A stretch of 59,239 bases of DNA, counting the filler, from Jimgerdemannia flammicorona (lineage: Eukaryota), in the NCBI GenBank assembly GCA_003990765.1. It is 2 parts of 2 records of this genome, joined end to end, with 100 filler letters (N's around TTAATTAATTAA, not from the genome) between each part and the next. Parts side by side here need not be neighbours in the genome. Positions count along the whole stretch, not along the records: positions 29,675 to 59,239 come from RBNJ01000485.1; 1 more part is not named here. One strand, given 5' to 3'. Both the position numbers and the translations under genes were made by a program. How positions within the stretch are numbered: position 1 is the stretch's first letter; every line of letters starts with the position of its first letter. The notes beneath the pieces are model-generated. The model was not told the origin of the DNA. It searched no databases and saw only the letters and a program-made list of their open reading frames with translations. Below, one piece after another: positions 11,281 through 59,239 of the stretch.

Positions 11281-11902
<622 letters not shown>

Positions 11903-13490: not shown

Positions 13491-13499
13491 AACTAATAT

Positions 13500-18279: not shown

Positions 18280-18310
18280 ACAGCATATCTGAAACTATAT
18301 AATCTCTCTT

Positions 18311-30688: not shown

Positions 30689-30710
30689 AGTTCTTTGTTA
30701 CACTGAATAA

Positions 30711-33359: not shown

Positions 33360-33680
33360 CTCAGACCTATTCTACCTTATCCAAGATCTTCAATACTATT
33401 TTCAGGATATCCAAGTATTCCAAACTCTAGCAACAATTCAGAAAGTCAATTAGAATTAGCACCAGAATCAAAATCAGAATTAGAATGAGTACCAGGATTG
33501 AAGTCAGAACTAGAATCAGAAGACAGTGATGACAAAATAACTACTTCATTACCAACCTTTACAGGATATCCTAAAGAAGACCCAAGAGAATTCCTTGATA
33601 GAATCAAGGAATTACAGCTCTGAAGAGCCTTTCTTCTTCTAAAAGATTGCCATATATAAGGCCAACCAGTCAAAGGAATT
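33360..33680 (+). mobile_element. Retrotransposon gag N-terminal relic within an AT-rich decayed region
   Basis: LPTFTGYPKEDPREFLDRIKEL (PxFxG..EDP.EFL gag signature) at ~33545-33620. Confidence 0.55.
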
Positions 33681-34544
33681 TTCACACTGCATTTTTCTTT
33701 AAGCCACACCCATTTCAGACCTTAGACCTCAGAACAATAGGACAGACATTATTTCTATATATGAATATTCAACTCTCTTACACTAGAAGTATTATACTCA
33801 AGGTATATAAAACAGGGGTATAAGTATATTGCCCAATCTGAATATATATATAAATGATAATAAGGAGATAATGATAAAATTAAATTAAATGATAATTACT
33901 ATATTATTAAAATATACTGATATATACATAATTACTCTTATACCATTCTTTCTTTCTCTATATTATTTAGAGTTAAGGTTTCATTAGTATCTATAGGGGG
34001 TCTATTTAAAAAACATCAAATATGTCTGATCTATTTTTATGCAGAACCTTGGGACTAATTATGAGATCAAGATGCTTTAGAATGAAATAGCTCAAAAATT
34101 GCTTAAGTAAGCACAATAAGTTTGATATGGCAAGTTTATAAATATACCTATTAATATTATTATATAATATATCAATAGTATATATTAAATAGAGGGTAAT
34201 AGGTTCTGTATAGTAAATTAGCATTACAGAGTAGATGTCAATTATCACTGGAGAGTGCACAGATAAGAGTGTGAGTTATCACTACAGAATATAACAGATC
34301 AATGAGCCAATGATGACTGAGAAACATTCTCTGAATTTGAGCTCTATTTCTCTCATCTCTATATAACTAGATGTCTTTTTAAGATTGCAGCTGATTATTT
34401 ATATGTAAAAGATCTCACTGTCCTACTCAAAGTATGCAAGTTAATATATATAGTAATCTTCTTCAATTTTGAAGAGAAGGTGAACTTAGATAAAAAGCTA
34501 TTTATTAATACTAGTGCATCGCAACCCAAGCTGACCCATGTACA

Positions 34545-34950
34545 TATTTAATATGACCCGGAATTATACATCACCCATCTTTAACCTGACCCGAAATTAT
34601 ATGTCACCCATCTTTAACCCAATCCGGAATAATACATCACCTGTCTTTAACCTGACCTGGAATAATACATCACCTGTCTTTAACCCAACCCAGAATAATA
34701 TGTCACCCATCTTTAACCTGACCCAGAATTATATATCACCCATCTTTAATCTGACCTGGAAACATATGTCACCCATCTTTAACCTGACCTGGAATTATAT
34801 GTAACCCATCTTTAACCCAACCTGAGAAATATATGTGACCTGACCCGAGAAATATACATGACCCAACCTGAGAAATATATGTGACCTGACCCAAGAAATA
34901 TACATGACCCAACTCTGACCCATATTTAACCCAACACAGACCCATCTTTA
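34545..34950 (+). repeat. hAT left subterminal tandem array (33-bp unit)
   Basis: About 8 copies of CACCCATCTTTAACCTGACCYGGAATTATAYRT, then GACCCAAC/GACCTGACCC variants. Confidence 0.9.
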
Positions 34951-35116
34951 ATCCGCCTTTAAGCTATAAGATACAAAAAAATATATATTGCACATCTAAG
35001 ATATATATTTAGAATAAACAAACAGAAATATAATTAGGAATTAGAAATCAAAATGAAATCAGAAATAAATAGGAAGTAAATCAGGAAAATAAAGAACTTA
35101 CTGGTATAAATAGATC

Positions 35117-36366
35117 TTATTCTTCATCGCTATAAACCAACTGATCCTCCTTCTTCTCATATTCCAAACCATCTTCCTCCATATATTTCAAACTGCTTTC
35201 CTTTATATCCTCCTCCTCCATATCCTCCTCTGCACCAATCTCCTCTACACCAACCTCCATTTTGTCCTCCATGCTGACCTCCTGTGCTGACCTCCCCATG
35301 TTCCTCCATGCTGATCTCTCTATGTTCCTCCATGCTGACCTCCCCCATGCTGACCTCCCCATGTTCCTCCATGCCAACCTCCCCCATGCTGACATCCCCA
35401 TACTGACCTCCCCCTTACCAACCTCTCCCATGCTGACCTCTCCACCGACCTCTCTACCAGTGCCGACTCCTCCACTGGCACCGACCTCTCCCACCTCTCC
35501 ATCTCCTCCACCACCACCCCCCTCAACAAAATGCACAAGCCTACCATCCATCAGTCACATATAAAGCATTTTGTCATTCTTCACCAGTACTTGTTCAAAT
35601 ATGGCCAGCAGTTTTTCGTATTCATCCATGACAACAATTCCATCTGGACAACCTCACTTGTTCCACACTTTGGCATTCACCTTGAAGCCAGTGTGGTATG
35701 ATGAACATTCTATGATTTTCACATGGTTTTCTATTGCTCTTATGACTTCTTGCCTCAGTTGGTCATCATGTACTTTCTTAATACATTTGTTGGCCACAGC
35801 AAAAGCACACCTAATGTCCAATTTGTAAGGCCTTTTCTCTGTAAGGTTTGGGGTATTCAGAAAATTGATTTGGCAATACTTCTAGATAGTGTTTGGGCAA
35901 ACTTGATGGCAAAAATGGCAATTGTAGCAAGATTTGTACTCCAGCCCAGGCTTAGAAGCTGGAGGATATGTATATTTTGAATGTTATTAGGAAAAAAATT
36001 CGGACATTGATTTAAAAAGAAAAAAAAAAAAAACTAACTTTTTCAAGCTGCATTATTGGGATCTGGTGGGGGACCTTGTACTTGTGGACTGGTGGCAAGC
36101 TAGTGGTCAAGCTGGAGATCGGAGAGCTGAGGGTCAGTGAGCTGGGAGTCAGTGGGCTTGGCAACCTGGGTGTCAGCAAGCTCAGCAGGCTGGGTGTTGG
36201 CAAGCTCGGCAGGCTGGGTGTTGGCAAGCTTGGCAGGCTGGGTGTTGGCAAGCTGGGCATCTTTAGGGCACTGAGCTTTGAGATGGCAAGCTGAAGTGCG
36301 TCAAGCTTGAGGGGGGCCAAGTAAATACTTATTGGCCAGACAGTCATATCCACATTTTCTCAACAT
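35117..36366 (-). pseudogene. hAT-internal second gene (2 exons, intron 35959-36038): repeats, Cys motif, acidic tail
   Basis: ATG at 36366 and a GTTAGT..CTAA..CAG intron. The spliced frame runs (LANTQPA[KE])n...KPGLEYKSCYNCHFCHQVCPNT...DGRLVHFVEGG...EEDMEEED..YSDEE*. The few stops are TGA/TAG, consistent with C>T or G>A transitions. Confidence 0.65.
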
Positions 36367-36694
36367 AGTAGTGAATTAAGTGAGGTGAAGTAAAGGATGA
36401 GGTGAAGTGAAGGACGAGGCAAAAAGAATGAGAGGCAAAAGTAAGCTTTTGATATCTTAAATGTTCAAAAGCTATAACATCTTTCAGATGCTCTTTCAGA
36501 ATCTCTCTGAAATCTCTTTCAGAAGCTCTTTCTGAATCTCTTTGAAATCTCTTTCAGAATTTCTTCAAAATCTCTTTCGAAACCCATTTCTAAATTACAT
36601 ATTGTTTGCAATCTGAGGAATGAGGGTGAGGGAGGTGGAGGAATATGTGAGGGTTGTGCAAGAGGAGTAGAATGCAAGAGGAGTGGAATGCAAG

Positions 36695-37331
36695 AGGAGT
36701 GGAATGCAAGAGGAGTGGAGCATAGTGAGGAAAGCTCCAGATTGTAAGTGTAAGTGTAAGCATAAGCACAAGTGTAAGCTTTGCTCTACTCAGCTGATAG
36801 CTGATATCATGTAATATCAGCTTATTATTAGCTTGTCAGACTGAGCAGAGCAAAGCTTATGCTTATAGTTATGCTTATGCTTATGCTTGCAATCTGGAGC
36901 TTTCCTCACTGCATTCCACTCTTCTCTGTGTGATTCAGCAGGTTCTGCATAAGCTCCGATTGAGCAAGGTTTGCAACAATGTTTGAGCAAGGTTTGTGGT
37001 ATGTTTGAGTGAGATTTGCAGTGAGGTTTGAGCAAGATTTGCAAGTGAGATTTGTATAAGCCAGGCTTTACAAGTCTTGCACTTGTAAGCTCAGCCGATA
37101 GCTGATATCATGTGATATCAGCTTATATATATATCATATCAGCTTGTGACTGAGCTTGTCTAGGTTAGCATGTGCAAGACTTGCAAAGCCTGGCTTATGC
37201 AAATCTCACTTTAATCTTATATGCAAATCTCACTTGCAAATATTACTTACAAATCTTGCATTAACCTCACTGCAAATCTCACTCAAACATACCACAAACC
37301 TCACTCAAACATCATTGCAAACCTTGCTCAA
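36695..37331. repeat. Two adjacent long inverted repeats (~36695-36925 and ~36960-37331) sharing a palindromic core
   Basis: Arms are complementary (e.g. GTGAGGAAAGCTCCAGATTG / CAATCTGGAGCTTTCCTCAC and TTGAGCAAGGTTTGCAA / TTGCAAACCTTGCTCAA). The core AGCTGATATC-ATGT-(G/A)ATATCAGCT lies at 36799-36822 and 37100-37123. Confidence 0.9.
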
Positions 37332-37692
37332 TGCAAAACATGCTGAATCTCTAAAGTATGTTTGCTGTTTGCAGTTGTGTGATGGGTACCAGTTCACCAC
37401 CTGTATATATTTATTCATCCATCCTCTGTCCACAATCGATCATTGGCTATTGCAAACCACCTCACTGCTCTCTCTCTTGCTGCCCTCCAGCTTGCTGACT
37501 CCTGTTCCAGGCCCCACAGTTCCTGGCTTTTCCCACTGCTCACTGCCTCCCCCCAACTCCCTGCCCCCTAGTTCACTGCCCCCCCAGCTCATTTCCCAGT
37601 TTGCCACTCCCTAGTTTGCCACTTCCTAGCCACTTTCCAGCTCTCAGCCTCTCACTCAAGCTCCCAGTCCCTGCTATCATCAAACATTCAAA

Positions 37693-40020
37693 ATGTCTAA
37701 AGATCAAGAAGTATATTTAAGAGAAATCTCAGAACCATCAGATGATATATTGGAGGATATATTGGAGGATATATCAGATATCTCCACCAGTTCATTATCA
37801 CCAATGAGCATGAGAATAAAAATAAAAACAAAACCTGGTAATAGCTGGGTGTGAAATCTGCCACAAAGGTAGTTTTATACATTGTGCTAATAGTTGAATT
37901 CATAGGAGTGATTGGTCTCATTAGTTGTAAGGGTGAGTGGTCAGTTGTAAGTGGTTGAGGTTCTAATATAGTCTCATATCTCTCTATTCAAATAGAATTT
38001 AAAAAGTAAGCTCATCAGTTGCAACCATTACATGACTTAGAGCTATATATCAAAGGATGGCAATATCAACAATCTTAAACAACATCTCTGGAAGCATCAT
38101 AATGCCATGCTCTTACCTCTCCAGCATGCTGAGAATCCTCGCTGGTCTAAGAAAGATATTGTAAGTATAGATAGAATGGAATTTGTGAAGTACTTAGGAG
38201 GTTATTAGAAAAATAATTGATCAAATTTTATTATTACAAATAGGAACACACTAGCAAGACTTTAAGTAATGAAAATTTCTGTCAGTTAATTGCCAACTTC
38301 ATTGTCACTGGATATCAGCCATTCTCCACTATCGAAAATGCTGGCTTCAAGTATCTCCTTCACATATTACACCCTGATCTGGCCCTTCCATCGGCTGATA
38401 TGATTTCATGAGTTATTTGAAAGGAATTTGAACTATTGTGGACTCAAGTGAAAGCAAGGCTAGCAGGGCTTAAGTCAAAGGTGTCACTTATACTTGATTG
38501 TTGGATATTGGATGTTAACATCAAGGCCTTCCTTGAAATAACAGCCTATTGGATTGACAGTGATTGGAAGATACATGACATTATCTTAGACTTTGTCAAT
38601 ATCAGTGAAATAACATATATGGGTGCCAATCTTGTGAAAAGTCTGGAGCTGATAATAGATAATTTATTGCCTAGTGACAATCAAATCATTGCTGTTGTGT
38701 GTGACAATGCCAGTAACAACAATACTCTGTTTGAGAATCTCCATCATTTGCTTGCTCATATATGCTGTTTAGGGCATGTGTTGAATCTCATTGTTAATGA
38801 TGCTCTTGGTTCTCTTAGCAAGCCCATTGGAAAGCTATGGAAGTTGATAAAGAAGATCAAAAATTCAGCACAATGACAAGCACAACTGGCAAAGGTCTGT
38901 GAATCCTCCAGAATTCCCATTTTGAAGCCTCTCTTAGATGTTACAATGAGATGGAGTTCTATATATGAAATGTTAGTGCATGCTCTGGAGATTCATAAGG
39001 TAAGATTTTGAATCTATTTGTGAAGTATTTTGGTACTAAATAAATTGATATTATATTCAAATAGAGCTTGGATATATTGTGTGCCATGGATAAGCAAATG
39101 AGCCATATATCTGAAGATACATGGCAACAATTTGAATTGATTTGCCAATTTCTCGAGCCTTTTGCCAAAGTGACAACTGTGATGTCAACTTCGAAGTATC
39201 CTACAATAGTGGCTGTTATCCCACTATTTAATCAGCTATGTGATCACCTTGAAGATGTCATCAATACATATCAAACTAGTGAACATTTTAATCAGGTATA
39301 TATATGATTTTGAAAGTAATTTTATTTGTGAATTTAGGAACTAATTTAGTAAGTAATTGGGAGGTAATATGTGTATATTCTTATTTTTTATAGATAATGC
39401 TTACCACTGTTGAGAATGTACATATGAAACTTCTAAAGTATTACTGCAAGATGACACCATTACACAGTATAGCTTTGGCCTTAGATCCATGTATCAATAT
39501 GCATTATTTCTATCATGAGCAATGGAAAAAATCCTTAATTGATGAATGGAAGAATCAGATGGAACATATCTGGAAAAAGGAGTATAAGCCTGTTAATGCT
39601 ATCATTATATCCTCAATATCTCATGATGCTGATGATTTTATCAACTCAATATATGAGAAGAAACAGCATGTTGATGTGGATGATGAGCTTGAATGGTGGG
39701 TGTTGTTTTCATGTTTTTTTGGTTGGTTTGGTTAATTTTCACTCATATTTCTCTGTTTCAGTTATTTGTCAGAGAATCCAGCTGATCCTCATATAGATAT
39801 ACTGGATTGGTGGTGGCGAAATCAGTTGATATATCCTAATCTTTCATGAATGGCTTACGATTATCATGCTATTTCAGTGACATCTGTTCCATCTGAATAT
39901 ATTTTTTCTATTGCTGGTGAGCTAGTGACTGAACATTGAAACAGCTTGTGTATAAATACAATTTGTGCATGTATGTGTTTGGATTCTTGGTGGTCTTCAG
40001 ATATTTTTCACTTTCAATTG
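37693..40020 (+). pseudogene. hAT transposase, intron-containing, with nonsense mutations
   Basis: BED finger (WCEICHK..KQHLWKHH), LDCW, VCDNASNN, HICCLGHVLNL (CxxH), TMRWSS (cf. TRWNS), ALDP, LDWW..YPNL, and the hATC dimerisation motif SVPSEYIFS. Confidence 0.9.
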
Positions 40021-40077
40021 CTCTGAATATTATTCAAATATTTTCTGAATCATTTTTTCAGAGCAGAGTTCAGAGGG

Positions 40078-40350
40078 TCAGGTTCAGGGTCAGGTTCAGG
40101 GGTCGGGTTCAGGTTTGGGTTAAGAGTAAATAATGGGTTGGGTGATATACATTTCCAGGTCAGGTTAAAGATGGGTAATGTATCTTTCTGGGTTGAGTTA
40201 AAGATGGGTGACATACAATTCTGGGTCAGGTTAAAGATAGGTGATGTATAATTCTGGGTCGGGTTAGAGACGGGTGACTTATAATTCTGGGTTGGGTTAA
40301 AGATGGATAATGTTTAATTCTGGGTTGGCTGTTTTATGGATTGAGTTTCA
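40078..40350 (-). repeat. hAT right subterminal array (inverted copy of the 33-bp unit)
   Basis: Repeats of GGGTCAGGTTAAAGATGGGTGA. Confidence 0.88.
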
Positions 40351-41183
40351 GGTTAATCAGGTCAGGTTTGCAGAGCACTAATTAATACCTTATCTTATCT
40401 CAAACTACTTGTCTCTGAGATCATACAATACTATCCAGTCATATCATAGACTCTTATGGAACTGTTACTTATAGTAGATAAGTTGGTAAAATATAACTGA
40501 ACCTAATTTTGTATCTGCAAATAGGTCATGAACTCTAATTGATAAAGTGATAAATACATTGATCTATAGAGATCAAGAAGATATATTAGAAATATTCACA
40601 TTCTAGCTTACTATAAATAACATAATGTTGGATTTGAAAGTTTGGAAAGATTCTTCCTATTTACTTAATGATAATATCTATTTCCAGATACAAACTAGAG
40701 ATCATGAAAAAACATCTGAATGGTAAGTTTGAGGTCACATAGTCCAAAAAATTTTGAAACTTTATTAATATAAAGTATACCTTCAGAAATACTAGTACCC
40801 AAGTTCTAGTACATCTCAATTATTAATAAGCTTGAGATATCTATGAGATTGCTAATTGAAATATACTCAAGTTTATCCTTAAGTGCTGTTTATTATCACC
40901 ACAAACTTGACAACTTAGAAAAGAGGATCGTATTTATTTATTGTCAATATAGTATTCTAACTTATACATAATATTGATATTAGTATCAATATTATCTAGT
41001 ATATCAAATATTCAAGTTGACTCAGAAATATACTATAAAAAGAGAAGTTTTTCAAAGTTCAGCAAACTTAATAAGATCTCTGCAAACTTCTCTTTAGTTT
41101 ATTGAATTAAGATAATAGCATATCTTGATCTATAAGTATTTTTTCAGTCTGGACTAGTGATGAGGCATAGAAGTACTACTGTA

Positions 41184-41629
41184 TAGTGCTCCCAATAAAT
41201 CGAATAGAATCAAATTGGACCCAAATTCAATTTGATTCGAAAACTTCAAATCGAATTGAGGTCCAATTTGATTTGAATCAATTTGAATTGAGGTCCAATT
41301 CGATTTGAGGTCTGATTCAAACTCCATTTTAGAAATTACATACCTCGACGAATACATATCCAAATTTAATGTTCTTTAGCTTGTAAGATTTCCCATATAT
41401 AGGGGAATCTAACAAGCTAAAGATCATTGAATTTAGACATGTATTCGTCGAGATATTACATTTCTAAAAATAGGTTTTGAATCAGACCCTCAATTCGATT
41501 CAAATTTGATCAATTTGAATTCGATTCCATTTGAACTCAATTCGAATTGAAAAATCCCCAATTCAATTCGATTTGAATGACCCTCAATTCAATTTGATTC
41601 AAATTGATTCAATTCATTTGGGAGCACTA
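41184..41629. mobile_element. hAT-type MITE (446 bp), largely palindromic
   Basis: 12-bp perfect TIR TAGTGCTCCCAA, 8-bp TSD CTA(C/T)TGTA, TTCGAATT/TTCAATT subterminal motifs and a central ~170-bp inverted repeat. Confidence 0.9.
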
Positions 41630-42716
41630 CTATTGTAAGACATTTGACAATACTAAGTAATTTGAAAATCCCTCTCATACATGAGAGGAATATCTTTTAA
41701 AAGAATTTTTTTTTTTAGTTAAAGAGTTTATAAACTATTCATGAACTCACTGTAATATATATAATACTCATATATACTAGTTATTAATATCAGCTATAGT
41801 TATTTGACTAAGATTTAAGGGTTACCATATGTGTATCAAACAAACTCTTGATAAGATTAAGAGTTAGATTGACCAGGTGTTCCCAGATACCTTTTTTTAC
41901 TCAATAAAGTATATCAGACATAATTAATAAATAAATATTTATAAGAGATAGTTCCTAAAGTATTTTCTAGAGGTTGGTTGAAAGATGATATAATTGTTAG
42001 TAAAAAATATTTATTCAAAAACAAGTAAAATTAATACATACAGTTAGTTTCTACAATCTATACTCTTGAAGACTCTTCTTAGCTATTTTATATTTATCTT
42101 TCAAATGGTAAATCTGTATATTTACAACTGTTCTCTATATCTCCAGAAGTATTTATAGAGGATATATCTTATTAAGGCATGAAAATTGAAAGCACAGAGC
42201 CATACATTTTGAGCAGGCTTGATTTGTACAAATTTGGCAGATCCAATATAGTGCTGGATAATTGACTATAAAGGACATAACTACTGGATAGCAATTATGA
42301 AGTTTGCTATCTAGTCTATATATAATAATACTACTAAAAAATATATTTATAATCAGTTATCAAATAATAAAATTTTTATCTAAATAATTTTATAATTATA
42401 AATATTACCCTTTTCCTACTATAGATAGTCTGTAAAGTACCTCTGATATATATCTATAATATGAAACTACTTTTACTTTATAAAAGGAGTCTTTAGTCTC
42501 CTTAAGAGTTCCTTTAATAATTGAAAAATATGAATATATTTCAAGAGATTGCTAATAAATATATATGACAGATATATTTGAGCACATGTAAGCAGATTAC
42601 AATAAGTTTGATCAATTCTAAGTAATACCAGGATTATTATTACACTAAGTGGAAGTTTCTTCTATAGTTTGAAAAAAGAATTATAGTCTACAAATAGTGA
42701 CTATACTGACTAATTA

Positions 42717-42718
<2 letters not shown>

Positions 42719-42752
<34 letters not shown>

Positions 42753-43684
42753 CTTTTTATAGTCACTTGGACTTCCCTTTATTACTGCCATCTATAATAA
42801 TAATAATACAATGTCACCCCATCCCCTCAACTGATATCCCTCAGATCTACTCCTCTCCCCTCTATGCTCCCCTGCCAGAGGACAACCCAGTTGCCCACCA
42901 CCCAAATCCTCCTGCCACTTTTCCGGGAGATACACTGTACCAAACCCTTTTGACTCCCCCCACCTGGCCCCCACCCTCACCACCAGCCATTCAGAATATC
43001 CAGTAATAACCATTCCCAACATACCACCTTATCCCCAACCCCAACTTGCTGGCCCTCCTCAAATACATGTACCCAATGTCCAGCCATCTCAACCCATATA
43101 GCCAGAGCCCAACCGAGGGTCAGCCATTCATCTCCAACCCCTCTGACCAGCCTTCAGCAGAGCTCTTCCCATCTCCCCCCTTCCCCTTCCTCCAGGGCTC
43201 GTAGCTCTAACCAGTCTGCGATACGCCACCAAAACACCTCCAAAATGTCACACTCACTAAGCCAATGTTCAGGCATTTGTAACACTCTCTCTTCCTGTCC
43301 AACATTGAAACATTCCTCACACTCAAACATGCCACCAGCCACCAAGTGCCCAGACTGATAGTTCAACATCACATTCTGCTATAGAACCTGCCACCATACC
43401 ACCCAGAACTTGGGGAGTAGCCACCACATCACCTGCTTGCTCCAAAGCCAGAGACCATTCCAGTCCCACTCCTTGCCAATCCCAACCCTCTGCCAGGCTT
43501 CAGGCCAAAGGTCTCCACCTAAGCCCCACAAACACTCCATTCTATCACCAAGCTGGAAGTCCTCCACCAAAACACTGCCCAGCAGTAGCCTGTCTCATTG
43601 CCACATCCACAGTCCCCAATCCTCCTCTCCTTCATCACCTCACCACCGAAGTCCAATTTTCTTAGCACTATCCACCACCCCCCA
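42719..43684 (-). mobile_element. 5'-truncated LINE (copy 3)
   Basis: Poly(T) from 42719, the same 3' motif GTCCAAGTGACTAT as copy 1, and ORF2 C-terminus ECEECFNV..MPEHWLSEC. Confidence 0.92.
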
Positions 43685-46706: not shown

Positions 46707-49700
46707 AGTTGTTACATAGTAGTCACTGAGTCCTTCAAATATGTCGGATTCTCTTCAAGGTATATCTCTTAGACTAACTCAAGTTTGTTATAAGCAAGTT
46801 ATTATTAGAGCACCTTCTCAAGGTCTTATAGTCCTCAAACTTCTTATCTTTAAACTGTCTTGTTATCTCTTAGATTGCTTACAAGAAAGTGTGTGTAAGT
46901 GAACTTAACTGACTTTATTTCAGAAGAAATAAAAAGGATATTTATACAAAATATAATTCAATGATTGCTAAGATATAAAGCTAAATATAAATTCCAATAA
47001 CTAAAACAAAATGCCAGGATAGAAAAAACTGCTAAGTTCCAGTATTGGCACTGATGGTTACACAGATTCAAGATGCTGGTATAATTTTGGTAATACAGGA
47101 AAATGGTGCTGGAATAATTCTGAGTCACCTCAGAATACTAGTAGTGGAATAGCTATTATACAGAAAAAGAGTGCTGGTATAATTCAGTATAACTAAGGGA
47201 CTTAGAGCAGAATGTTCAAGACCATAGGGACTTCATTCTCATCAGAGGTCAGGATGTCTTTGAAGGAGATAAGGTCCATGAATATCTTGTCTGTCTTACC
47301 ATCATTGTTGTTGTCATCGCATAGATTATACATTTCACATATGTCATGTAAGATGACATTATTGCCAATGACATCATTACATTCAGTGAGGAAATTGGGG
47401 GCTCTCCAATCTATGAGGTTCTCTTCTACCAAATAGGGAACAAATGTAGGGTCTTAGGAAGGTCTAACCTGGATGCTTGGACCTTGGAATACTGAGATCA
47501 ATCCTTGCAGGAATTGATCTGGGTTGTCCTGGAGGATGGGATGCCAGAAGTCTTCTACTTTATCGCTATTGAGGGTGATAGTGGACGGGCTTCTGTAACC
47601 ACTCTGGCTTCTAGTGTATTGATATGGTGGGCTGATACTGAGACTCTAACATACTCCAAGTTGAGGATTGACCATGGTACATGCCTGAAGATCTGATGGA
47701 TCTTCTTAGCTGTCCTTGCTTCATATATATCTATGGGAGTAGCATCTTATAACTCTTGGGGGCTGGTCTGTGGAAACTCCCAGCAGAGGAGGTTTTCTAT
47801 TTCATACTTCTGCCATATTTAGAGGTATTTGGTAACAATGATGATCTTTGTTTCCATTTCATAGCAGTAGAGGATATAATGATAATGTTCACTAGTACCC
47901 AGGTTGACACTAGGAGTCCTTCTTGAGTGGGTCCTCAAGGCTCTTCTGATGTCTTGGAATATCCTTTCTTCAACTGAGGTATCTTGGTGGTTTCTTGACC
48001 TTGAGGTTTGGCAAGCAGCAGGCATTTCATTTGTGGTAAGTCTTTGAGCTATTTTGGGATTGGTGAGTCTTGTTGAGTTGCTGCTACTACAGTTCCTTGA
48101 TCCTTCTTTTATATTTCTCAAGATATCCATACTGTGGTCATAATGACTCACAGTTAGTCATCATTACTCATCTTTTATACCATATAATCTTCTTGTACTC
48201 AAATCTGGTGGCTTGCAAGGAAAAGCTGTCTCTTGTACTGATATCATCATTCTGGGATCACTATTATAATATATTGAAGATATATTAATCTACAGTAAAT
48301 CAGTAGAACTATACTATATCTATCTCAGATAGATACTGATCCTATAGGCTACTGGATAATCTTCTTAACTGAGTACTACTCTAATAGAAATATTAGAGAT
48401 ATCTATAGTCAAGGTGAATAGTCTAGTAGGGTCAGATACAATTAGTATTGAGGTCTCTGTAAAGAGTCTCTTGAGATGGTCTATAGCCTAAATGTACTCA
48501 GAGGTCTATTCAGTTTTAATTTCTACTCTATTGTAGATCAGACTGATCAATAGAGCTATAATAGTATAGTATCTCTGAATAAACCTTCAGTAGTATTCTA
48601 TAATACCCAGGAAGTACTAGAGTAGCTTGAGAGTAATAGAGATAGAGAGCTGATATCTTTCAGGAGTCTATTTTAATATCTTTAGTAGAGATAATATATC
48701 TCAGATATTCAATCTGGTCTTAGTAGAACTTATACTTACTTATTTTAGTATAGAGCTAGTTTTCTCCTAATCTCTTCTAGAAGCTCAAGCCAGCTAAAAT
48801 CCAATATACTATCTATAAAAAAGAACTCTTGACCATTGTCACTATACTTTAGGAATAATGTTATTTTCTTTTAGAACAATTATTCATAACCCATACTGAT
48901 TATTATATTCTATAGTATATTTATATATAGCCAATATAAACTCATAGATAAGTCTATTGAATAGAAATCATTGCTCTTTTTGATATAGAAATTAAATATA
49001 TTTCAGACAAAATCAACTATATAGCTGATGGCTTCTTTAGATATATAGAGGATGAGTTTGTCTTCATAATTGAGATAATTTTTGATCTTACTCAGCTTAT
49101 CAAAGATAGCTACCAGTAAGACAGCTCTCTATTGAAATTCCTTCAACTCTGTAAAGACCATCTCAGAACCTATGAAAAAGATAGCCAAAAGATTTACTTA
49201 CTATAATAGACTCATCTATAGAAATAATGAAAGAGTGGTAGTATTTAAGAATGATACTCTATAATTCTAAATAATATAGAAACTCTATAATATACCAATA
49301 ATAAGATATTGTAGTTTCAAGAAGTCTATAATTTCCTCTTAAGAGAGTTCTACTAGCCAAGAATAACTAAGAATATCAAAGTCTTCATGATTTTATATAA
49401 AATGTATCAAAGATTTATGAGTAGTAATAAGTTACCTATAGGACTTCTGTAATCTCTGCTCATCTCCAGCTATAACTAGAACCAAATTACTATAAACTTC
49501 ATTATCCTGCTCTCTAAGACCAAGATAGGATAAAATACTATAATAGTATTTATAGACTGTATAAGTAAATAAGCTCATTTTGCACCCACCAAGACTACTA
49601 CTACAGCTTCTGAAATTGCCAAAATCTTCTTCAACTAAGTATTCAGACTATATAATATATCTAGTACCATTATATCTGACTAAGATACTAAGTTTATAAG

Positions 49701-51119
49701 CAATTTCTAGAAGGCATTTTTCTCTCTCTATAGAATCAAACTGAAGTTCTTCATAGCTTGAAACCCCCAGACAGATGGTCAGATCAAGTATACCAATGGA
49801 ACTCTCAAGTAGATTCTTAGTATCTTTTGCTATTATAAGCAAAATAATTAGGACAAATATCTGATCTATGCTAAGTTTGTCTATAACAATAGTTAGTAAA
49901 CCTCTATAAAAAAGACTCTATTCTTTCTAAACTATGATTAATACCCAAGAACTTTAAGTATAATAGCAAAATCTGAAGTCCCAGTAGTCCAGAACTTGGC
50001 TAAGACTATATCTGACCTTATATAAATAATAAGAGATGCTCTTATAGAAATACAGAACTACTAGACTAAGTATACTAACTTGAAGTAAAGAGAAGTCTCC
50101 TATAATATTAATGACAGAGTTATGCTTAGAACAGACCATCTCTATCCAGATATCTTAATATAGCAATTATCCAAGAATCTCTGTGCTAGAAGAATTAGAC
50201 TATATAAGATTGTGAAAAAAGTTAATAAAGTTAACTATAAGCTATAACTCTCTTATAATATTTGAGTGTACTCAGTATCTCATATTAGTCAATTAGCAGA
50301 CTACTATGAGAATTATTTTTTTAAATATATAGTTCTATCATTACTCTTAATTAAGATCAATAATTATAAGAAGTTTGAAATTGAGAAAGTTCTAGATTGC
50401 AAGATCTGCAAATATATGAATATAGTTAAGAGATTTTTTCTCATAAAGTAGAAGAATTATCCTACTTATAATATTATCTGAGAAAAGAAAGAAGTACTGG
50501 AAAATGCACATAAAGCTCTCCAAGACTATATGGAAACACTCACTCTATAGTAATGAAAGAAACTATAGATCTAGACCTAGACTATATGATAAATATGAGA
50601 GAAATATATATCTATCAGAAATATATTACTAAATATTGAGAGAAAAGAAATACTATACTTAGCTTATAGAATAAAAAGATTATACTATTAAAGAACTTCT
50701 CTAGATCTCCTATATATATAGTTAAACTAGAAGAACTATATATAATTAGTACAATATGTAGTAATTATACTAGTATGATATAGTACTTATCAGCAACTAT
50801 AAAAAGTCATCTGATTGAGTTTGAATCCTCAGTCTACAGTCTGGAGAATAATATCTTAACAGAGTGACCAACTTTCTATCTAAAGTTAAAGATAGAAAGT
50901 TTCTAGCCAGTGATGTCTAATAATTATTATATAACTAGTATATACTTTACTTATAGCAACAGATCATATATTACTTTAGAAATATAATTAAAATGAAGTT
51001 ATACTAGACTGGTGAACAGATATAAATACTCAGGGTAGAAATACAGCATATCTCTCATTTTCTTTTTTTTTTATTAAAGAAAAAAATAATAATACAAGAG
51101 TATTTACTATGTATATATT

Positions 51120-52272
51120 TACTATCAAACTGCCCACTATAGCCAACCTCTTATAAGCCAGATTAACCATATTTTCAGATATATCCAGATTTCTATCTAA
51201 GGAAGAAACTGCTGCTTCAAGAACCTTAACTAGTACTCTCAATAAATTGAATTAAAGGTCTCATTTAATTTGATTTAAATTGAATCAAGGTCCAATTTGA
51301 TTTAAGATTTGATTTGAATACTATTTTTTGAAATATATATAATAACTTGACAAAAATATGTTTAAATTTAAAATCTTTAGCTTGTTAGATTCCTCTATAT
51401 AAGAGAAATATAACAATATAACAAGCTAAAAATTGTTAAATTTGGATATATTTTCATTGAGTATTATATTTCCTAAAATAGAGTTCAAATTAGACCCTTA
51501 ATTTGATTTGAATTCAATTCAATTTGAACTTAATTTGAATTGAAAAATTCCCAATTCAATTCATTTAAAAGTACTACTCTTAACCTCATCAATCAGGATC
51601 TGGGATATTATATATATCCTCAACTACTATAAAGTTATAGACAGAGTCTATCTTACTACCAGCTATCTAAAAATCTGATATAAATATGAAAATGTATACT
51701 AACTTCTCTAATGGGTATAGGACCTAACTGTTGACTAAGTTACTAACTGGGTCTATCTAGATAGATATGAGTAAAGACTGGCTAAGAAGATTTATCAAAT
51801 TATATAGTATATATCTTAGGTAATCTCCAATCTCAACTATATATAACTGAAGGACTCTCGGAGCTTCCTCTTTCTCAAGGTTGATATACTTAAGATTAAA
51901 GTAGCCAAAGAAGCCTACTTCTGAATTACTCTTAAGTTCACTAACTATGAACTCTACTAGAGTTCTCTTTTGAATGATAACTTAGACCAATAGCTCTAAG
52001 ATCTTTCTGACCTTTTTGAAGAATCACTCACCTGAATAAATATCCTCAGATATAACCAATAAGTTCTCTACTTGGATAATCCCAACTATATTAGATAGAG
52101 GATCTCTACCCCAATACCTATAGATATATAAGAACTATTTGCAGACCTCATTGACTTCTCTATATTTAACACCAAGTCAGTAACTATCCCTCTCACTGCT
52201 AAGTAGAAAGGTGATAGTAATGTAGATAAGAAAAAGAATATTCCAACCCCTCTCCTAGTACTTAATTTCTAA
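51120..52272 (+). pseudogene. Diverged homologue of the LTR-encoded accessory protein, split by a MITE
   Basis: YILNYYKVIDRVYLTTSYLKI*YKYE, RLAKKIYQII*YIS*VISNLNY, KVAKEAYF*ITL, LLNDNLDQ*L*DL, FADLIDFS and PLLVLNF* are collinear with FILYCHEMETRITITTECLQMWQEYE, RTAKKIHQIFRHAPWSIPNLEY, RVATEARSTITL, ILQDNPDQFLQGL, FADLISFS and PMVLNFLL. Confidence 0.8.
51231..51576. mobile_element. Older copy of the hAT-type MITE
   Basis: TAGTACT..AGTACTA ends, internal similarity to 41184-41629, and flanks (AC/CT)CTTAAC. Confidence 0.8.
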
Positions 52273-52879
52273 ATCAATGCAGATATTACTTTTTAAAAAA
52301 AGAGAGATATAATAGAATGAATAGTTGAGATATATATAATGAATAATTATAACCAGTAATATTATAGTAATGATATTATAATTAAGTAACATATGCTGAA
52401 TAATAAATAATATAAATAATGAATAATATAGATAAATAATATTCAGCTTATCTTCAGTAACTGGTACTATAGTAATTACTATAGCAACTATTCATTATCT
52501 AATAATTTATAGTATAAAGATCCTGATTACAAAGGTCCTGATCACAAAGATCCTGATCACAAAGATTATCTATAATTACTAAATTAGTTACTCATACTTA
52601 GCCAGAAATTACAAACTAACTTATATAAATACTTCTAGCATTCTATTCAAAATAAAGTAGTTTTAGTTCAGTCCTTAATATAAGAATCAAGTTCCCCCTC
52701 TATATATATATATTCTCTTGAGTCTTAGTAAAAACATCTAAGTAACTCTAGTATTTCTGACTAAACTCCAGAAACCTAGCTAACTTCTATCAGAACTAAA
52801 AACTGATATATAAATTCCAAAGACTTAAAAAAAACTATTATTGAATCTAAATTCTAAGGCAAATTCAGTTTGCATATAA

Positions 52880-54428
52880 TATTATGTAGTAGTCACTGAG
52901 TCCTTCAAATACATCAGATTCTCTTCAAGGTGTATCTCTTAGACTAACTCAAGTTTGTTATAAGCAAGTTCTTATTGGAGTGCCTTCTTAAGATCTTATA
53001 GTACTCAAACTTCTTATCTTTAAACTGTCTTGTTATCTCTTAGATTACTTGCAAGAGATTGTGTATAAGTGAACTAGAACTAACTTTATTTTAGAGGAAA
53101 TAAGAAGAGTATTTATACAAAATATAATTCAATGGTTGCTAAGATATAAAGCTATATATAAATTCCAATAACCAAATAAAAATGCCAGGACATGGAAAAC
53201 TGCCAAGTTCCAGGGTCAGTACAGATGGTTGCACAGGTTCAGGATGCTGGTATAATTTTGGTAATATAGAAAAATGGTGTTGAAATAATTCTGAGTTACA
53301 TCAGAATACTGGTAGAGGAACAGCTGTTACACAGAAAAAGAGTACTGGCATAATTCAGTGTAACCAAGGAACTTAGAGCAGAATGTTCAGGACTATAGGA
53401 GTTTCATCTTCATCAGAGGTCAGGATGTCTTTGAAGGAGATGAGATCTGCAAATATCTTGTCTGTCTCATTATTGTCACATAGGTTATGCATTTCATGTA
53501 TATTACATAGGATGATGTCATTGCTGATGATGTCATCATGTTTGGCAGAGAAATCAGTGGCTCTCCAATCTATGAGATTCTCTTCCACAAAATAGGGAAC
53601 AAATGTAAAGTCTTGGGGAGGTCTAATCTGGATACTTGGGCCTTAGAATACTGAGTTCAATCCTTGCAAGAATTGATCTGAGTTGTCCTGGAGGATGGGA
53701 TGCCTGAAGTCTTCTACTTCATCACTATTGAGGGAAATAGTGGACTGGGCTTCTGTAGTCACTCTGGCTTCTAGTACATTGATATGGCAGGCTGACAGGT
53801 CTCTGAAGTCTGAGACTCTAATATATTCTAAGTTGGAGATCAACCATAGTGCATGCCTGAAGATCTGATGAATCTTCTTAGCTATCCTTGCTTCACATAT
53901 ATCTATAGGAGTAGCATTTTGTAACTCTTGAGGGCTAGCCTGTGGGAACTTCCAGCAGAAAAGGTTTTCTATTTTGTACTCCTGCCATATTTGGAGGTAT
54001 TCGGTAGCAATGGTGATCCTTGTGACAGTAGAGGATATAATGATAAGGGTCACCAGTACCCAGGTTGACACTAGGAGTCCTTCTTGTACAGGTCCTCAAG
54101 GCTCTTCTGATGTCTTGGAATATCCTTTCTTCAACTGAGATGCCTTAGTGATTTCTTGACCTTGAGGTTTGGTGAGCAGCAGGCATTTCATTTGTAGTAA
54201 GTCTTTGAGCTATTTTGGGATTGGTGGACCTTGTTAGTTGCTGCTACTGTGGTTTCTTGATCCTTCTTTTATATTCCCCAAGATATCCATACTGTGGTCA
54301 CAATGATTCACAGTTGGTCATCATTGCTTATCTTATATGCCATATGATCTTCTTGTGCTCTGATCTGGTGGCTTGCAAGGAAAGACTGTCTCTTGTACTG
54401 ATGTCATCATTCTGAGATCACTATTACA
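52880..54428 (-). mobile_element. Solo LTR (1549 bp) of the dUTPase-Gypsy family
   Basis: Starts TGTAATAG (minus strand) at 54428, with a 4-bp TSD ATAA on both sides. Contains the decayed ORF 53373-54186. Confidence 0.9.
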
Positions 54429-54785
54429 ATAAATAAAGAATAAGTCTCTTATAATTATTATTATTTAAGAAAGAGCATTACTGCTACAACTACTTCTAAG
54501 TAAGTACTTTCTCACACTAAGACTTCTTAGTATACTTATATACTAAGTCTCTAAGTAATTTTTCTACAATATCCTAATTATCTAAGAATAAGAGATGAAT
54601 TAAGAAAGAGTTATTATAAGTGAATTAGTGGTGACAAAATCAGTTATGTATTCTAATCTTTTATAAATAGCTTATAATTATCTTATTATTTCAGCAATAT
54701 CAGTTCTATCTAATTTTTTTTTTTATTACTAATAAGCTAGTAACTGAGTATCAAAATAGCTTATATATAAATATATATAATTTAT

Positions 54786-57700
54786 TGTCACATAGTGGTC
54801 ACTGAGTCCTTCAAATATATCAGATTCTCTTCAAGGTATATCTCTTAGACTAACTCAAGTTTGTTATAAGTAAGTTCTTATTAGAGTGCCTTTCCAAGGT
54901 CTTATAGTTCTCAAACTTCTTATCTTTAAACTGTCTTATTATCTCTTAGATTGCTTGCAAGGAAGTATGTATAAGTGAACTTAACTGACTTTATTTCAGA
55001 GAAAATAAGAAGGGTATTTATACAAAATATAATTCAATGGTTGCTAAGATATAAAGCTAAATATAAATTTCAATAACTAAAATAAAATACCAGGATATGG
55101 AAAACTGCCAAGTTCCAGGATCTGTACTGATGGTTTCACAGGTTCAGGATACTGGTATAATTTTAGTAATATAGGAAAATGGTGCTGAAATAATTCAGTA
55201 TTACATCAGAATGCTGGTGGTGGAATAGCTATTACACAGGAAAAGGGTGCTGGTATAATTCAGTATAACTGAGGAACTTAGAGCAGAATATTCAAGACCA
55301 TAGGGGCTTCATCCTCATCAGAGGTCAGGATGTCTTTGAAGGAGATAAGGTCCACAAATTCATTGTTATTGCATAGGTCACGCATTTCGTGTATGTCATG
55401 TAGGATGACATCATCACCAATAACATCATCACATTCGGTGGTGGTGGGAACAAGGAGGTCTGGAGCTCTCCAGTCTATGAGATTCTCTTCCACAAAATAG
55501 GGGACAAATGTGGAGTGTTGGGGAGGTCTAACCTGGATGCTTGGACCTTGAAATACTGAGATCAATTCTTGCAGGAATTGGTCTGGGTTGTTCTGGAGGA
55601 TGGGATGCCAGAAGTCTTCTACTTCATCACTGTTGAGGGCGATAGCGAACTGGGCTTCTGTAGCCGCTTCTTGTAATACTCCTGCTTCAATTCATTTGGT
55701 AAAGAGGTCTATAATAACTATAATATAGCAGTTTCCTGATAGTATTACTGATAGTGGCCCAATAATATCCATTGCAATGTGGTGGAAGGGGATAGGCTCA
55801 ATTCTTGATGACTCAGGTGCCTGGTCATACTGATCTTGTTTCTGTTTTTGGCACTTGTTACACCCTTTGACAAATTGGCACAGGTCTTCTTCTATCTTGA
55901 GCCACCACATGGTTCTTCTTGCCTTGTTGTATGTGTTGGTTCCTCCTAGGTATCCTTGTTCATATACTTCCTTCATTACTTGATACTTCTTGTATTTGGG
56001 TATTACAAGCTTTTCTCCTTTCCTGAGTATGGTGTTGTCTAGTTCAAACTGTTTCCAAGTCCAGTTAATGATGGTGATTGTCCAGGGTTTGAGGTAATTA
56101 GACATCTTCCACTGCCTAAGATAGCTGATTAATCCATAGTATAGCTCTTTATTCATGTTGAATAGTCTTGATGGGGGTATTTCAGAGTATCTTTGAGAGT
56201 GCATCAGCATTGGTGTTGGTTCTTTCTGAGCAGTACTTAACAGTACAGTCATACTCTTGCAGCCTGTAGATCCATCTAGCATATATTCCTTTGGGGTTCA
56301 GAGTGTGAAATAGCCAGGCAAGAGCAGAATGGTCTGTTTGAATAGTGAAGTGTTTCCTGACTAGGTAGTAGTAGAACTTGTCTACTGCCCAAACTACTGC
56401 TAAGCATTTGAGCTTGCATGACCCATAGTTCTGTTCTGCTCTGCAGGTACCTCAGCTTGCATAGGAGATGACATATTCATATTCATCTTTCTTCTGAGCT
56501 AGGACTGCTTTAAGTCCTATAGCACTTGCATCTGTCTGCAGGATGAACTCTAGATTCCAATCTGGTCCTCTGAGAATGGGTGCTTGGGTCAACCTGGTCT
56601 TGAGTTCATTGAAGGTTTCTTAGTGTTCTTTGGTCCATTTGAATTTGGTTTCCTTCTTCAGTAGCTCATAGATGGGTGCTGCGATATTGGAGTATCCTTT
56701 GATAAATCTTCTGTAGTAGGAGGCCAGTTCAAGGAAGGCATAGACTTCTGTGGTTATCCTAGGTCTCAGGTAGGCTACAATAGCCTCAATCTTCATGAGG
56801 TCTGTAGGATTTCAAGCTGGTTGATGAGGTGTCCTAGGTAGGTAATTTCCTGAGCTGCAAACTTGTATTTCTTGGGCTTGATGTAGAGGCCATGCTCCTT
56901 GAGCTTCTTGAGGGCTAGCTGTATGTGGTTGATATATTCCTGTGCAGTATTGCTGAAGATGATCACATCATCAACATAGACAAAGAGCCATTTTCTAATC
57001 TCATTGCTAAAGACTCTGTTTACCATTCACTGAAAGCTTGCTGGGATATTGCACATTTCAAATGGCATTTGCAGGTAGATATAGGTGGTATCAGATATAA
57101 TGAAGACTGATTTCTCACTAGTATCTTGAGTGAGACCAATCTGATGGAAGCCTGAGAACAAATCCAAGGTGGTGTAGTATTTGGCTTCACTTCCAAGGGT
57201 AGTAAGAATTTATTGAATATTTGGCAAGGGCTGTCTATCCTTCTTGGTAATTGTATTGAGCTTCCTATAGTCAATACAGAGTTTTGGCACAAACTCTCCA
57301 GGCTTGCTTCCTTTCTTTGGGGTGAGGACAATGAGTGAAGCCCAGGAGCTGATAGCTTGCTTGATAATTCTGACTTCTTCCATTTTCTTGAGTTCTGCTC
57401 GCAGTCATTCTCTATAGGCAGATAGTATAGGTCTGGCTTTCTGGTAGATGGGCTTGGTATCACCAGTGTTAACTTCATGGTAGTACTTGGGTTCTTGATT
57501 GTAGATATCCCTGAAGTCTGTAGCAAGTACTCCTTCATTCTGGTGCAGGATCTTGAGAAGTTGTTCTTTCAGGAGAAAGTTTTCTCCAATGGTATATGTG
57601 TGCTTATTCTGGTTCTTGTCTTTCTTATGCTCAAGTTTGGTGATTTTGGTGGCAGCATAGACTCCTCTTCTAATAGATCCAAAGCCTTGTTCTGCTCTCT

Positions 57701-59239
57701 TGGTCTTGATGAGTTCAATGGCTTCAGTGATCTTGGGCTTCTTGATTTTATAGATCAGTATCTGGCCAATCCTGTCATGCTTCTTGATTTCAAATAGGGT
57801 GGTGAGGTTGTGATTTCTGACTATGAGAAATATCTTGCCAGTATAATCAGGGTTAATTACTCCTCCTTCCACTGAGATTTCACTTTTGGCCAGACTGCTC
57901 CTGATCTTGATAATTCCAGCATAGTTCTCTGGCAGCTTGACTCCAATTCCAGTATCAAGTAGAGTGGTGGTCTGTGGTTCGAGAGTAGTATCTTGAATAC
58001 TGGCAAGGTCCATTCCTATGGCTTCTTCAGTCTTGTATTCTGGGATCTTGACTTTGGGGTGAAACATCTTGACCTTGAGGGTAATGTCTGGTTCTCATTC
58101 CTTCTCATTATCACTGTCAGCTTGAAGCTCAGGGGGCTGGTCATCTTCTTCAGCTTTCCTTTTTGCTTTGGTGGTTTCTTACTCATGCTTCTGTTAGTGG
58201 ATTTTCCTAACTTCACTGATATAGGACCAGCAGTCATTCAGGTGTTCAGAGCAGTACATCCTAGTACTATGAGGGTATCTTTCTTGAGGGGCATAGCTAT
58301 TGATGATCTTGTTGTACCACTGCTCATCTGTGAGCTTGGGTGTCTTGGAGGTAATGGGGATGATTGTCTGTTTATGACTATAGTGGGTATGATACTAGTT
58401 GGCTTTGATGGCTCTATCTTGATGCCAGTTATTTTCTCTATTAAGTGTTCAGTAGGGTGTCTGACAGTCTAATATCTCTGTGTAAAGACCACTTTCTGAT
58501 CAAGGGTCAGTACAGCTGGAGTAGACCAGATTGCTAGGGCAATTTCAAGGTGAACTCCTTTGAGGAAGGTTGAATCTGCTATTTGTTCCTTGAGGGTATC
58601 ATTATAGCCAGCCAAGACAATTTGGTAGCAGATTTGGATATAGAATGAGTTAGAATCTTTACTGAGTCTCTGGCAGATAATATTGAGTTGATCCTTGAGA
58701 GCTTGCTTAATCTCTTCAGTATAGTATATTGTTCTGAGGAAGGCCTTTATGTTGGCAAGTTTGGCTGTGCCATTATCAGCAATAGTGACTGCATTGAACT
58801 TGTCTCTGACAGGTCCTCTGAGGCTGACTGATAGAAGGGCCAATTGTGCATCCACACTAAGGGCTTGTATGGCAGTGAATTGTTCAAAGTCTTTAATGAA
58901 GGTCAGGATTGACTCTTCAGTAGTATATTCATAGAATGTGTGGGGACACATTTCTATCTTATCTTGAATTCTTGTAGGGGTGACTCTTATAGTCAGAGTA
59001 GTTGTTGTGGTGATTATTCATTTTTTAGCTTAAAAGTGAGGAATTCATCTTGAATTACTAGCTAATGGGCACCAAGTTATCATATAGTGGTTGCTGAGTC
59101 CTTCAAATATATCAGATTCTCTTCAAGGTATATCTCTTAGACTAACTCAAGTTTGTTATAAGCAAGTTCTTATTGGAGTACCTTCCCAAGGTCTTATAGT
59201 CCTCAAACTTCTTATCTTTAAACTGTCTTATTATCTCTT
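54786..59239 (-). mobile_element. Ty3/Gypsy element B with two internal deletions: 5' LTR (59078-end), PBS, gag, dUTPase, RT, RNase H, partial integrase, partial 3' LTR (54786-55665)
   Basis: RT YVDD, RNase H LQTDAS, integrase C..CQK..PFHHIAMDIIGPL, dUTPase GMDL..RSSLA..RAEQGFGS. The Zn knuckle and protease are deleted at ~58345, and integrase is fused to the LTR ORF at ~55665. Confidence 0.93.
57670..58067 (-). pseudogene. dUTPase domain in Gypsy element B pol
   Basis: EAIGMDLAS..IRSSLAKS..GGVINPDYTG..DRIGQ..KRAEQGFGS. Confidence 0.9.

Follow-up and report, generated by a model that had tools for sequence, protein, structure and literature searches.

A dead homologue of an LTR-borne ORF downstream of a decayed, plausibly chromodomain-type pol in Jimgerdemannia flammicorona

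Several retroviruses carry genes in or overlapping U3, such as MMTV sag, lentiviral nef and foamy-virus bel/tas, the last of which has an internal promoter. In LTR retrotransposons of plants and insects, sense additional ORFs that lie between pol and the 3' LTR have been described under the name aORF-3S (Vicient & Casacuberta 2020, PMC7264820), and in bdelloid rotifers types of ORF3 are common to unrelated lineages of LTR retrotransposons (Rodriguez, Kenefick & Arkhipova 2017, PMC5408684). The LTR terminus of Metaviridae is generally TGT...ACA (PMC3601003), and RIP-like C>T hypermutation has been found in retrotransposons of fungi such as the crapaud element of Podospora (PMC10787394). Additional ORFs and the sharing of ORFs between lineages, as in the rotifers, are already known, and the open-access literature that we searched yielded neither a fungal LTR with an embedded ORF nor an ORF family that occurs both within and outside the LTR. 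A gene found internally in one lineage but within the LTR of a second would offer a case for studying how the LTR boundary (PPT and integrase-recognised termini) moves; the same case would bear on how retroviruses may have gained U3 genes and on solo LTRs persisting as protein-coding units.

The window, by which we mean the whole stretch analysed here (59,239 nucleotides of the J. flammicorona assembly GCA_003990765.1, filler included), is characterised by alternating GC-rich and very AT-rich blocks and by many transposons. A repeat of ~1.5 kb with an ORF of 272 aa, our reference ORF, occupies 29675-31141, and further copies of it lie on the minus strand at 46710-48274, 52880-54428 and 54764-55665 (partial). 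These ORF-bearing repeats are the LTRs of a Ty3/gypsy family that we name family A. Behind the copy at 46710-48274 come the PBS-like ACTTGGTGCCCATTGG and then gag, protease, dUTPase (PF00692, E 1.8e-26) and RT; the 5' ends of the LTRs read TGTAATAG (TATAATAG in one copy), the 3' ends TGTGACA or TGTAACA, and the flanks are unrelated between copies. Contigs from public sequencing runs (4 runs, two only guessed as RNA) cover the family-A LTR piecemeal and confirm its 3' end at ~31135, beyond which they carry PBS or diverse other sequence. From its start the LTR runs through ~150 nt to TATAAAAG, then 86 nt to the ATG and its 272 codons; from the stop 207 nt lead to a core of TGTATAAATAC and AATAAA, and another ~215 nt to the LTR end. 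As the ORF is inside the LTR and upstream of the TATA/AATAAA core, it probably lies in U3. Relatedness of the accessory protein to the family-A gag was considered and rejected (hhalign probability 0.1).

The features on which the argument turns, in window coordinates, are as follows.

~12.7-15.5 kb, minus strand: chromovirus-2, decayed; pol stop, 25 nt, AAGGAAGAA, then TGTAATAA (12703)
29870-30688, plus strand: intact 272-aa clade-A ORF inside the family-A LTR 29675-31141, the reference ORF
48291-50556, plus strand: pol remnant of chromovirus-1, 5'-truncated and heavily mutated, 76 stops in frame
~48781-48924, plus strand: RNase H (RT_RNaseH, E 0.003)
~49537-49767, plus strand: integrase core (rve, E 0.092, weak)
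50113-50304, plus strand: Tf2-type SH3, GPY/F module (SH3_Tf2-1, PF24626; 34.1 bits, 3e-8, cut-off 30; 35.9 bits in a repeat scan)
50374-50535, plus strand: chromodomain-like match (Chromo, PF00385; 15.8 bits, E 0.013, positions 1-52 of 53, below the cut-off of 25.1)
50548-50556, plus strand: three stops in succession, end of pol
50557-51125, plus strand: spacer from the pol stop to the ORF, ~570 nt, with no significant match elsewhere in the window
51126-51230, plus strand: N-terminal block of the decayed ORF (tblastn with the relative P0007, 43% identity over 35 residues, 11-45)
51231-51578: MITE-like insertion of 348 bp, TIRs AGTACT...AATTGAATT, CTTAAC at both flanks (self-blastn)
51579-52272, plus strand: main part of the decayed ORF, in a clade with P0007/P0020/L001
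52295-52307, plus strand: polypurine tract AAAAAAAGAGAGA, 22 nt after the ORF stop
52308-52879, plus strand: proposed 3' LTR of chromovirus-1, proximal part, starting TATAATAG and interrupted at 52880
52622-52632, plus strand: TATA core TATATAAATAC, 314 nt into the proposed LTR; 18 nt on, AATAAAG (AATAAA 52651-52656)
52880-54428, minus strand: solo LTR of family A with a frameshifted copy of the clade-A ORF (54186-53376)
54433-54620, plus strand: AT-rich continuation beyond the solo LTR, either the rest of the chromovirus-1 LTR or else its flank
54621-54773: hAT fragment, 77% identical to 39803-39958, the latter being part of a hAT dimerisation domain

The stretch 51126-52272 on the plus strand is a dead homologue of the 272-aa LTR-borne ORF. 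When the intact protein was run against the window by tblastn it matched 51613-52020 (plus strand, 31% identity, residues 50-185, E 1e-9), and an HMM of 12 family members (alignment A1), from which the decayed copy itself had been left out, scored 92.5 bits on the decayed span with the MITE removed, aligning it at HMM positions 29-202. A six-frame HMM scan gave the copy an E value of 7e-27 and, apart from the four LTR copies, revealed no decayed ORF copy in the whole window besides 51126-52272. The profile match is significant for the conserved core of the family, WNPxLxDNPDQ, FxGPPI and IxW. ELFADLIDFS is read at 52132-52161 in the main frame, PLLVLNF plus stop shares its frame with the core (LLVLNF at 52252-52269, stop at 52270-52272), and in the A1 alignment DLI.F and P.VLNF are conserved motif columns near the C-terminus. 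On the strength of the HMM score, the six-frame scan and the in-frame motifs we take the homology as confirmed, and with it the collinear match to the LTR ORF, FADL..FS and VLNF motifs included, that had been proposed from the sequence-only reading. Chance similarity in AT-rich, low-complexity DNA is an explanation that has to be weighed here, since under a permissive, transition-tolerant alignment shuffled AT-rich DNA does score equally high. Against the family profile, however, 300 mononucleotide shuffles and 300 codon shuffles peaked at 3.4 and 2.3 bits, respectively, so that in this comparison, which had been named beforehand as a check, none of 600 shuffles exceeded 3.4 bits; moreover, the match is collinear across ~250 profile positions, both C-terminal motifs included, and homology to L001, the closest intact relative, is detectable by blastn at the DNA level as well (E 3.5e-21). 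The six-frame scan, the profile alignment and the shuffle controls thus lead us to reject chance similarity, the probability of which we regard as negligible.

The N-terminal block at 51126-51230 is in another frame than the main block, and the MITE that follows it explains why the decayed span measures 1152 nt instead of ~820. This insertion, a second copy of which lies at 41248-41577 (72% identical), is absent from the sequence-only reading. In the main part there is a single frameshift in a TA run at ~51605-51613, and the frame that continues over 51613-52272 shows no indel over 660 nt and 19 stops in 220 codons; no in-frame ATG remains in the decayed ORF. Neither the frameshift nor the loss of the ATG features in the sequence-only reading. 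Relative to the ORF of L001, 71 of 190 codons are identical and the nucleotide identity is 54.7%, with a purine/pyrimidine identity of 83%. The 258 nucleotide differences comprise 77 C>T, 47 G>A, 17 T>C, 20 A>G and 97 transversions, that is, C>T and G>A against the reverse transitions stand at 124 vs 37 (another tally gave 236 vs 89), and 11 of the 16 aligned stops are opposite W, Q or R codons. Hypermutation of the C>T/G>A type, either RIP-like or by methyl-cytosine deamination, accounts for most of the decay. The same C>T/G>A bias is seen in the family-A LTR copies, where mutated sites amount to 24/54, 26/56 and 15/34 at CpG and to 58/214, 52/213 and 19/108 at CpA, the overall order being CpG, CpA, CpC, CpT; as CpG comes ahead of CpA in these copies, methyl-cytosine deamination may contribute. 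Little DNA identity between the decayed copy and its relatives had been read as a sign of past purifying selection. This reading is not supported, given that 124 of the 258 differences are C>T or G>A and that blastn still recovers the homology; the low identity is largely the work of hypermutation on top of a deep divergence between clades.

That the ORF belongs to a real family under selection nevertheless holds, and is shown by 13 intact relatives with 28-90% identity to the 272-aa ORF, falling into at least two clades. A database search of 5.8 billion proteins returned 6 relatives and one of 1.84 billion representatives returned 5. All 13 come from soil metagenomes, on short contigs, most of which measure ~0.5-2.4 kb (P0009 is on a contig of 4848 bp), and a scan of metagenome contigs, which did not pick up the contig of P0009, gave 2 short loci, L001, a contig of 1.5 kb, and L002. 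Scans of prokaryote genome contigs and of viral contigs gave 0 loci of the family, the viral one with 5 relatives reported, and longer or fused forms of the protein were searched for and none was found. In the ML tree the clade-A group contains the LTR copies of the window, P0001-4 and P0008, with P0005, P0012 and P0014 beside it, and clade B contains P0007, P0020 (which is L001) and P0009 with a support of 98/95. The decayed copy groups with P0007/P0020/L001 at 93/89, on a branch that is 2.06 long and deviant in composition. In tblastn it is likewise matched best by P0020 (E 4e-29, 96.7 bits) and P0007 (E 8e-28, 92.0 bits), as against an E of 1e-9 and 50.4 bits for the clade-A 272-aa ORF. By sequence, then, the decayed copy is a member of clade B, a placement to be read with care; the intact members of this clade are found only in soil-metagenome contigs.

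At the gathering level Pfam gave no hit for any of the 14 members tested, and PHROGs gave none. A sequence profile run against PDB returned nothing below E 0.33, the top score in the ESM Atlas was 0.84, which is noise level, and Foldseek of an AlphaFold2 model against PDB found no match at E <= 0.001. The model itself, a poor one of mean pLDDT 51, suggests helices over the first two-thirds of the protein and an acidic, disordered tail that holds DLI.F and P.VLNF.

Upstream of the decayed ORF and on the same strand lies the pol remnant that ends at 50556. In this element, chromovirus-1, the 5' LTR of a family-A element on the minus strand interrupts the sequence at 48290, and the RT is missing; when the lost 5' half of chromovirus-1 was looked for by Pfam in the six frames of 31141-43502, only a hAT domain was found. 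Pfam searches of the pol frame, in which stops were read as X, place the Tf2-type SH3 above its cut-off, whereas Chromo, at 15.8 bits, stays below the 25.1 required and rve is weak. The chromodomain integrase that the earlier account places upstream of the ORF is plausible on these domain matches, in decayed form. The closest full family-A integrase, P0021, which is 81% identical to the fragment in the window, has no Chromo or Tf2-SH3 hit, so that the pol lineages of family A and of chromovirus-1 differ. That two pol lineages are involved, one with a dUTPase and no chromodomain and the other with Tf2-SH3 and a weak Chromo match, is thereby supported.

The ORF was said to end ~20 nt before a purine tract, and the gap measures 22 nt, from the stop at 52270-52272 to the tract at 52295-52307. 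In L001, the one intact clade-B contig with flanks, the stop is directly followed by GGAGGGAGGA and then by TGTAATAAG, a junction of purine tract and TGTAATA like that of the decayed copy, and a junction of this type is present in chromovirus-2 as well. On its plus strand the window has just two purine runs with T[GA]TAATA[GA] behind them, at 52295 and at 31721, and a pair of purine run and terminus arises anywhere in the shuffled 4.57-kb element in 22 of 2000 shuffles, a figure that applies to a short motif picked after it had been seen. A transition-tolerant scoring was dropped in favour of a stricter one because shuffled AT-rich DNA scored as high. The best match of the 81-nt TATA/AATAAA core of family A in the 4.4-kb element falls at 52617-52674 with a score of 43, where the null maximum is 35 and 0 of 300 shuffles reached the score. 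Allowing <=1 mismatch, TGTATAAATAC has 10 occurrences against 1.94 expected, and these include the four family-A LTRs, L002 (exact) and both chromovirus LTRs. The rest of the proposed LTR, compared with the L001 tail, the family-A LTR and the chromovirus-2 LTR, gave z values of ~0-1.7, which are not significant, and in comparisons with the 5' part, the post-ORF spacer and the U5 of family A the 81-nt core alone was significant. Neither flank, 50561-51119 or 52273-52873, had a repeat in the window that rose above shuffled controls. The LTR start had been called unrelated in sequence to the other LTR, and this is borne out for most of its length, which is unalignable, but not for the terminal motif, which the two share (TATAATAG versus TGTAATAG), nor for the core at 52617-52674, which is significantly similar. 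We asked whether a 33-nt repeat in L001 (170-202 and 1481-1513, 82% identical) might be left over from flanking LTRs and rejected this, as the remainder of both regions is unalignable.

Farther down, the proposed LTR is interrupted at 52880 by the solo LTR of family A. ATAA stands on both sides of this solo LTR (52876-52879 and 54429-54432), which is a later insertion into the LTR of the decayed element.

Based on these data we propose that a chromodomain-type Ty3/gypsy element probably carried the ORF as its last internal gene, in the order pol-ORF-PPT-LTR. The window has no second LTR copy of the element, so that we infer the LTR boundary from motifs, and the assignment of the ORF to the chromovirus-1 pol from one copy.

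A second purine run, GAGAGAAAAGAAA, is found at 50638-50650, 80 nt past the pol stop, and TATAAATAC-like strings are frequent in the AT-rich DNA here, with another at 51021. Should this run be the PPT, the LTR would begin at ~50651 and extend to ~52880 or beyond, the ORF would lie inside a long 3' LTR here too, and the post-ORF purine tract with its TATAATAG would be left over or there by chance. TATA1, ORF, spacer and TATA2/AATAAA core are indeed arranged collinearly with those of the family-A LTR, the PPT of chromovirus-2 likewise follows its pol stop closely, by 25 nt, and most metagenome contigs of the family, at 0.5-2.4 kb, are of LTR length, as assemblers give for repeats. However, what follows the run at 50638-50650 is TACTATAC and not the TGTAATA terminus of the other four LTR starts, and T[GA]TAATA[GA] is absent from the plus strand throughout 50557-51130. 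An intact PPT and terminus right behind the stop of the intact L001 is hard to take for a relic, the ORF-bearing LTRs of family A keep no purine tract after the ORF stop, and 50561-51119 resembles neither the first 237 nt of the family-A LTR nor the upstream part of L001. We therefore consider a long LTR enclosing the ORF to be unlikely.

The assignment to chromovirus-1 could also be challenged by supposing a chimera, in which the ORF, PPT and LTR of a non-chromovirus element were brought behind an unrelated chromovirus pol by nested insertion or deletion, so that no chromovirus lineage ever had the gene. There is a single copy, the 570-nt spacer between pol and ORF is featureless, and the region is crowded with nested insertions, comprising two elements and one solo LTR of family A, a MITE and a hAT fragment, all of which would suit such an origin. 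The same may be said of chromovirus-2, which runs from pol to PPT to LTR, with no accessory ORF and no HMM hit; yet chromovirus-1 and -2 are different families, and for this reason the absence of the ORF in the latter says little. Furthermore, orientation and order fit a single element, composition and decay are uniform over 48.3-52.9 kb (GC 0.26-0.31), and the stretch from pol to the ORF shows neither an LTR terminus nor a target duplication. A chimeric origin thus appears to us quite improbable.

Returning to the order pol-ORF-PPT-LTR, the ancestral element would have consisted of pol (RNase H, integrase, SH3 and chromodomain), ~570 nt with the gene's own TATA box, an ORF of ~280 codons, 22 nt, the polypurine tract and the 3' LTR. 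The copy was inactivated by C>T/G>A hypermutation, and hit later by the MITE, by the family-A solo LTR in its LTR and by the family-A element that removed its 5' part. With the gene between integrase and LTR in one element and within the LTR of a second, the repeat boundary seems to have shifted past it, a PPT shift and separate capture of the gene being candidate mechanisms.

Wherever it is sited, the gene may have a promoter of its own. TATAAAAG is conserved in L001, in L002 and in two copies of family A, where 65-86 nt separate it from the ATG, and a TATA-like TATTAAAG stands at 51071-51078, ~55 nt before the first alignable codon of the decayed copy, which suggests a putative promoter that accompanies the gene. 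Living members would be transcribed from this conserved TATA box into a short mRNA ending at the LTR polyadenylation signal, and the protein made from it would be helical with an acidic tail bearing DLI.F and P.VLNF. By analogy with retroviral accessory genes in or beside U3, it may serve the element as a regulator or adaptor, for instance by transactivation or by counteracting silencing, which is a conjecture. As the protein family is an orphan, any function found would be new.

Taken as a whole, the data could reflect an undescribed accessory gene with its own TATA and an acidic motif-bearing tail, retained across the LTR boundary by at least two unrelated Ty3/gypsy lineages, internal in a chromovirus and in U3 in the dUTPase lineage, a possibility that we put forward tentatively. 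The case rests on one dead copy and one 1.5-kb metagenome contig, and the decayed copy, being dead, is of value as positional evidence only. If true, it would be a natural record of a PPT/LTR boundary crossing a gene, or of the exchange of a cassette between elements, and every solo LTR of the dUTPase lineage would be a free-standing protein-coding gene.

Compared with the described systems, the locus, in the reading we favour, resembles aORF-3S in that a decayed ORF on the same strand follows pol and precedes the PPT and 3' LTR, in that copies and relatives share a conserved ORF, and in that the role of both is conjectural. Unlike aORF-3S, it has no ENV-like feature and no homology to described aORFs, and its host is not a plant; unlike them, too, the gene is also found inside an LTR, a situation for which PMC7264820 does not contain the phrases 'within', 'inside' or 'in the LTR'. 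The mode of decay is like RIP in its strong C>T/G>A bias, its AT-rich remnants and its stops derived from W, Q and R codons; in the family-A LTR copies, CpG is the most mutated context, ahead of the CpA preferred in canonical RIP. As with the ORF3 of bdelloid rotifers, one family of accessory ORFs occurs in different Ty3/gypsy-type lineages, one of them with a dUTPase, but while the ORF3 types of the rotifers can be recognised as enzymes or as env-like, the family described here is an orphan whose position relative to the LTR boundary varies between lineages.

With MMTV sag, lentiviral nef and foamy-virus bel/tas the gene shares neither sequence nor fold similarity, its host is not a vertebrate, and it is known here from sequence alone. 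We do not count the gene among them, but the layout is alike, a 3'-terminal accessory gene in or next to U3, and like the internal promoter of foamy viruses a putative promoter of its own lies upstream of the gene, the family-A copies being wholly inside the LTR.

The second chromovirus-like element of the window and the family-A element at 55.7-59.2 kb (of the dUTPase-bearing Ty3/gypsy family with the accessory ORF inside its LTR) are both read on the minus strand.

12300-15500 (-): second chromovirus-like element in the window, heavily decayed, with integrase, Tf2-type SH3 domain and a chromodomain-like end
57405-58067 (-): dUTPase domain (PF00692, E 1.8e-26) in the family-A Ty3/gypsy polyprotein, upstream of RT

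The accessory ORF is absent from the element at 12300-15500, where the profile HMM of the accessory protein family gives no match. The SH3 domain of this element scores E 3.8e-5, and at its 3' end the stop codon is followed after 25 nt by AAGGAAGAA (12703-12695) and then by an LTR that begins with TGTAATAA and carries the TATA-core-type motif TATATAAATAC at 12414-12404. Just downstream of this LTR, an intact-looking histone H4 coding start at ~11700-11835 (-) probably belongs to a host gene. In L001, the metagenome contig with an intact clade-B accessory ORF, a 33-nt segment (GTCAGGCGGAAC...) occurs twice with 82% identity, upstream of the ORF and ~220 nt into the sequence after the PPT (170-202 and 1481-1513).

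The family-A element at 55.7-59.2 kb contains a deletion junction at 55665-55692 (-), where the integrase core breaks off after its first part (..IDLFTK) and is fused to the middle of the accessory ORF of the LTR (..ATEAQFAIALNSDEVEDFWHP). As the two are joined directly, this element lacks its integrase C-terminus, its PPT and ~630 nt from the beginning of its 3' LTR. The LTR carrying the only intact ORF adjoins positions 29575-29674, where TTAATTAATTA between two N runs is read as an assembly gap, and thus its first ~50 nt and left flank are absent from the assembly. A further TATATAAATAC lies within AT-rich DNA at 31186-31196 (+), 45 nt past the end of this LTR (31141). Another decayed LTR may have been the site at which this LTR inserted.

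Other repeats in the window are as follows.

16564-21743 and 24288-29463 (+): two GC-rich repeats (~50% GC) with strong GC skew
42731-43551 (-): fragment related to these GC-rich repeats
39760-39990 (+): hAT transposase remnant (Dimer_Tnp_hAT, E 5.9e-17)
41248-41577 and 51231-51578: two copies of a palindromic MITE of 330-350 bp

The two GC-rich repeats share 69% identity and both contain long ORFs. A fragment at 54621-54773 is 77% identical to the hAT remnant, and a hAT-type element such as the one that left this remnant may have mobilised the MITE copies.
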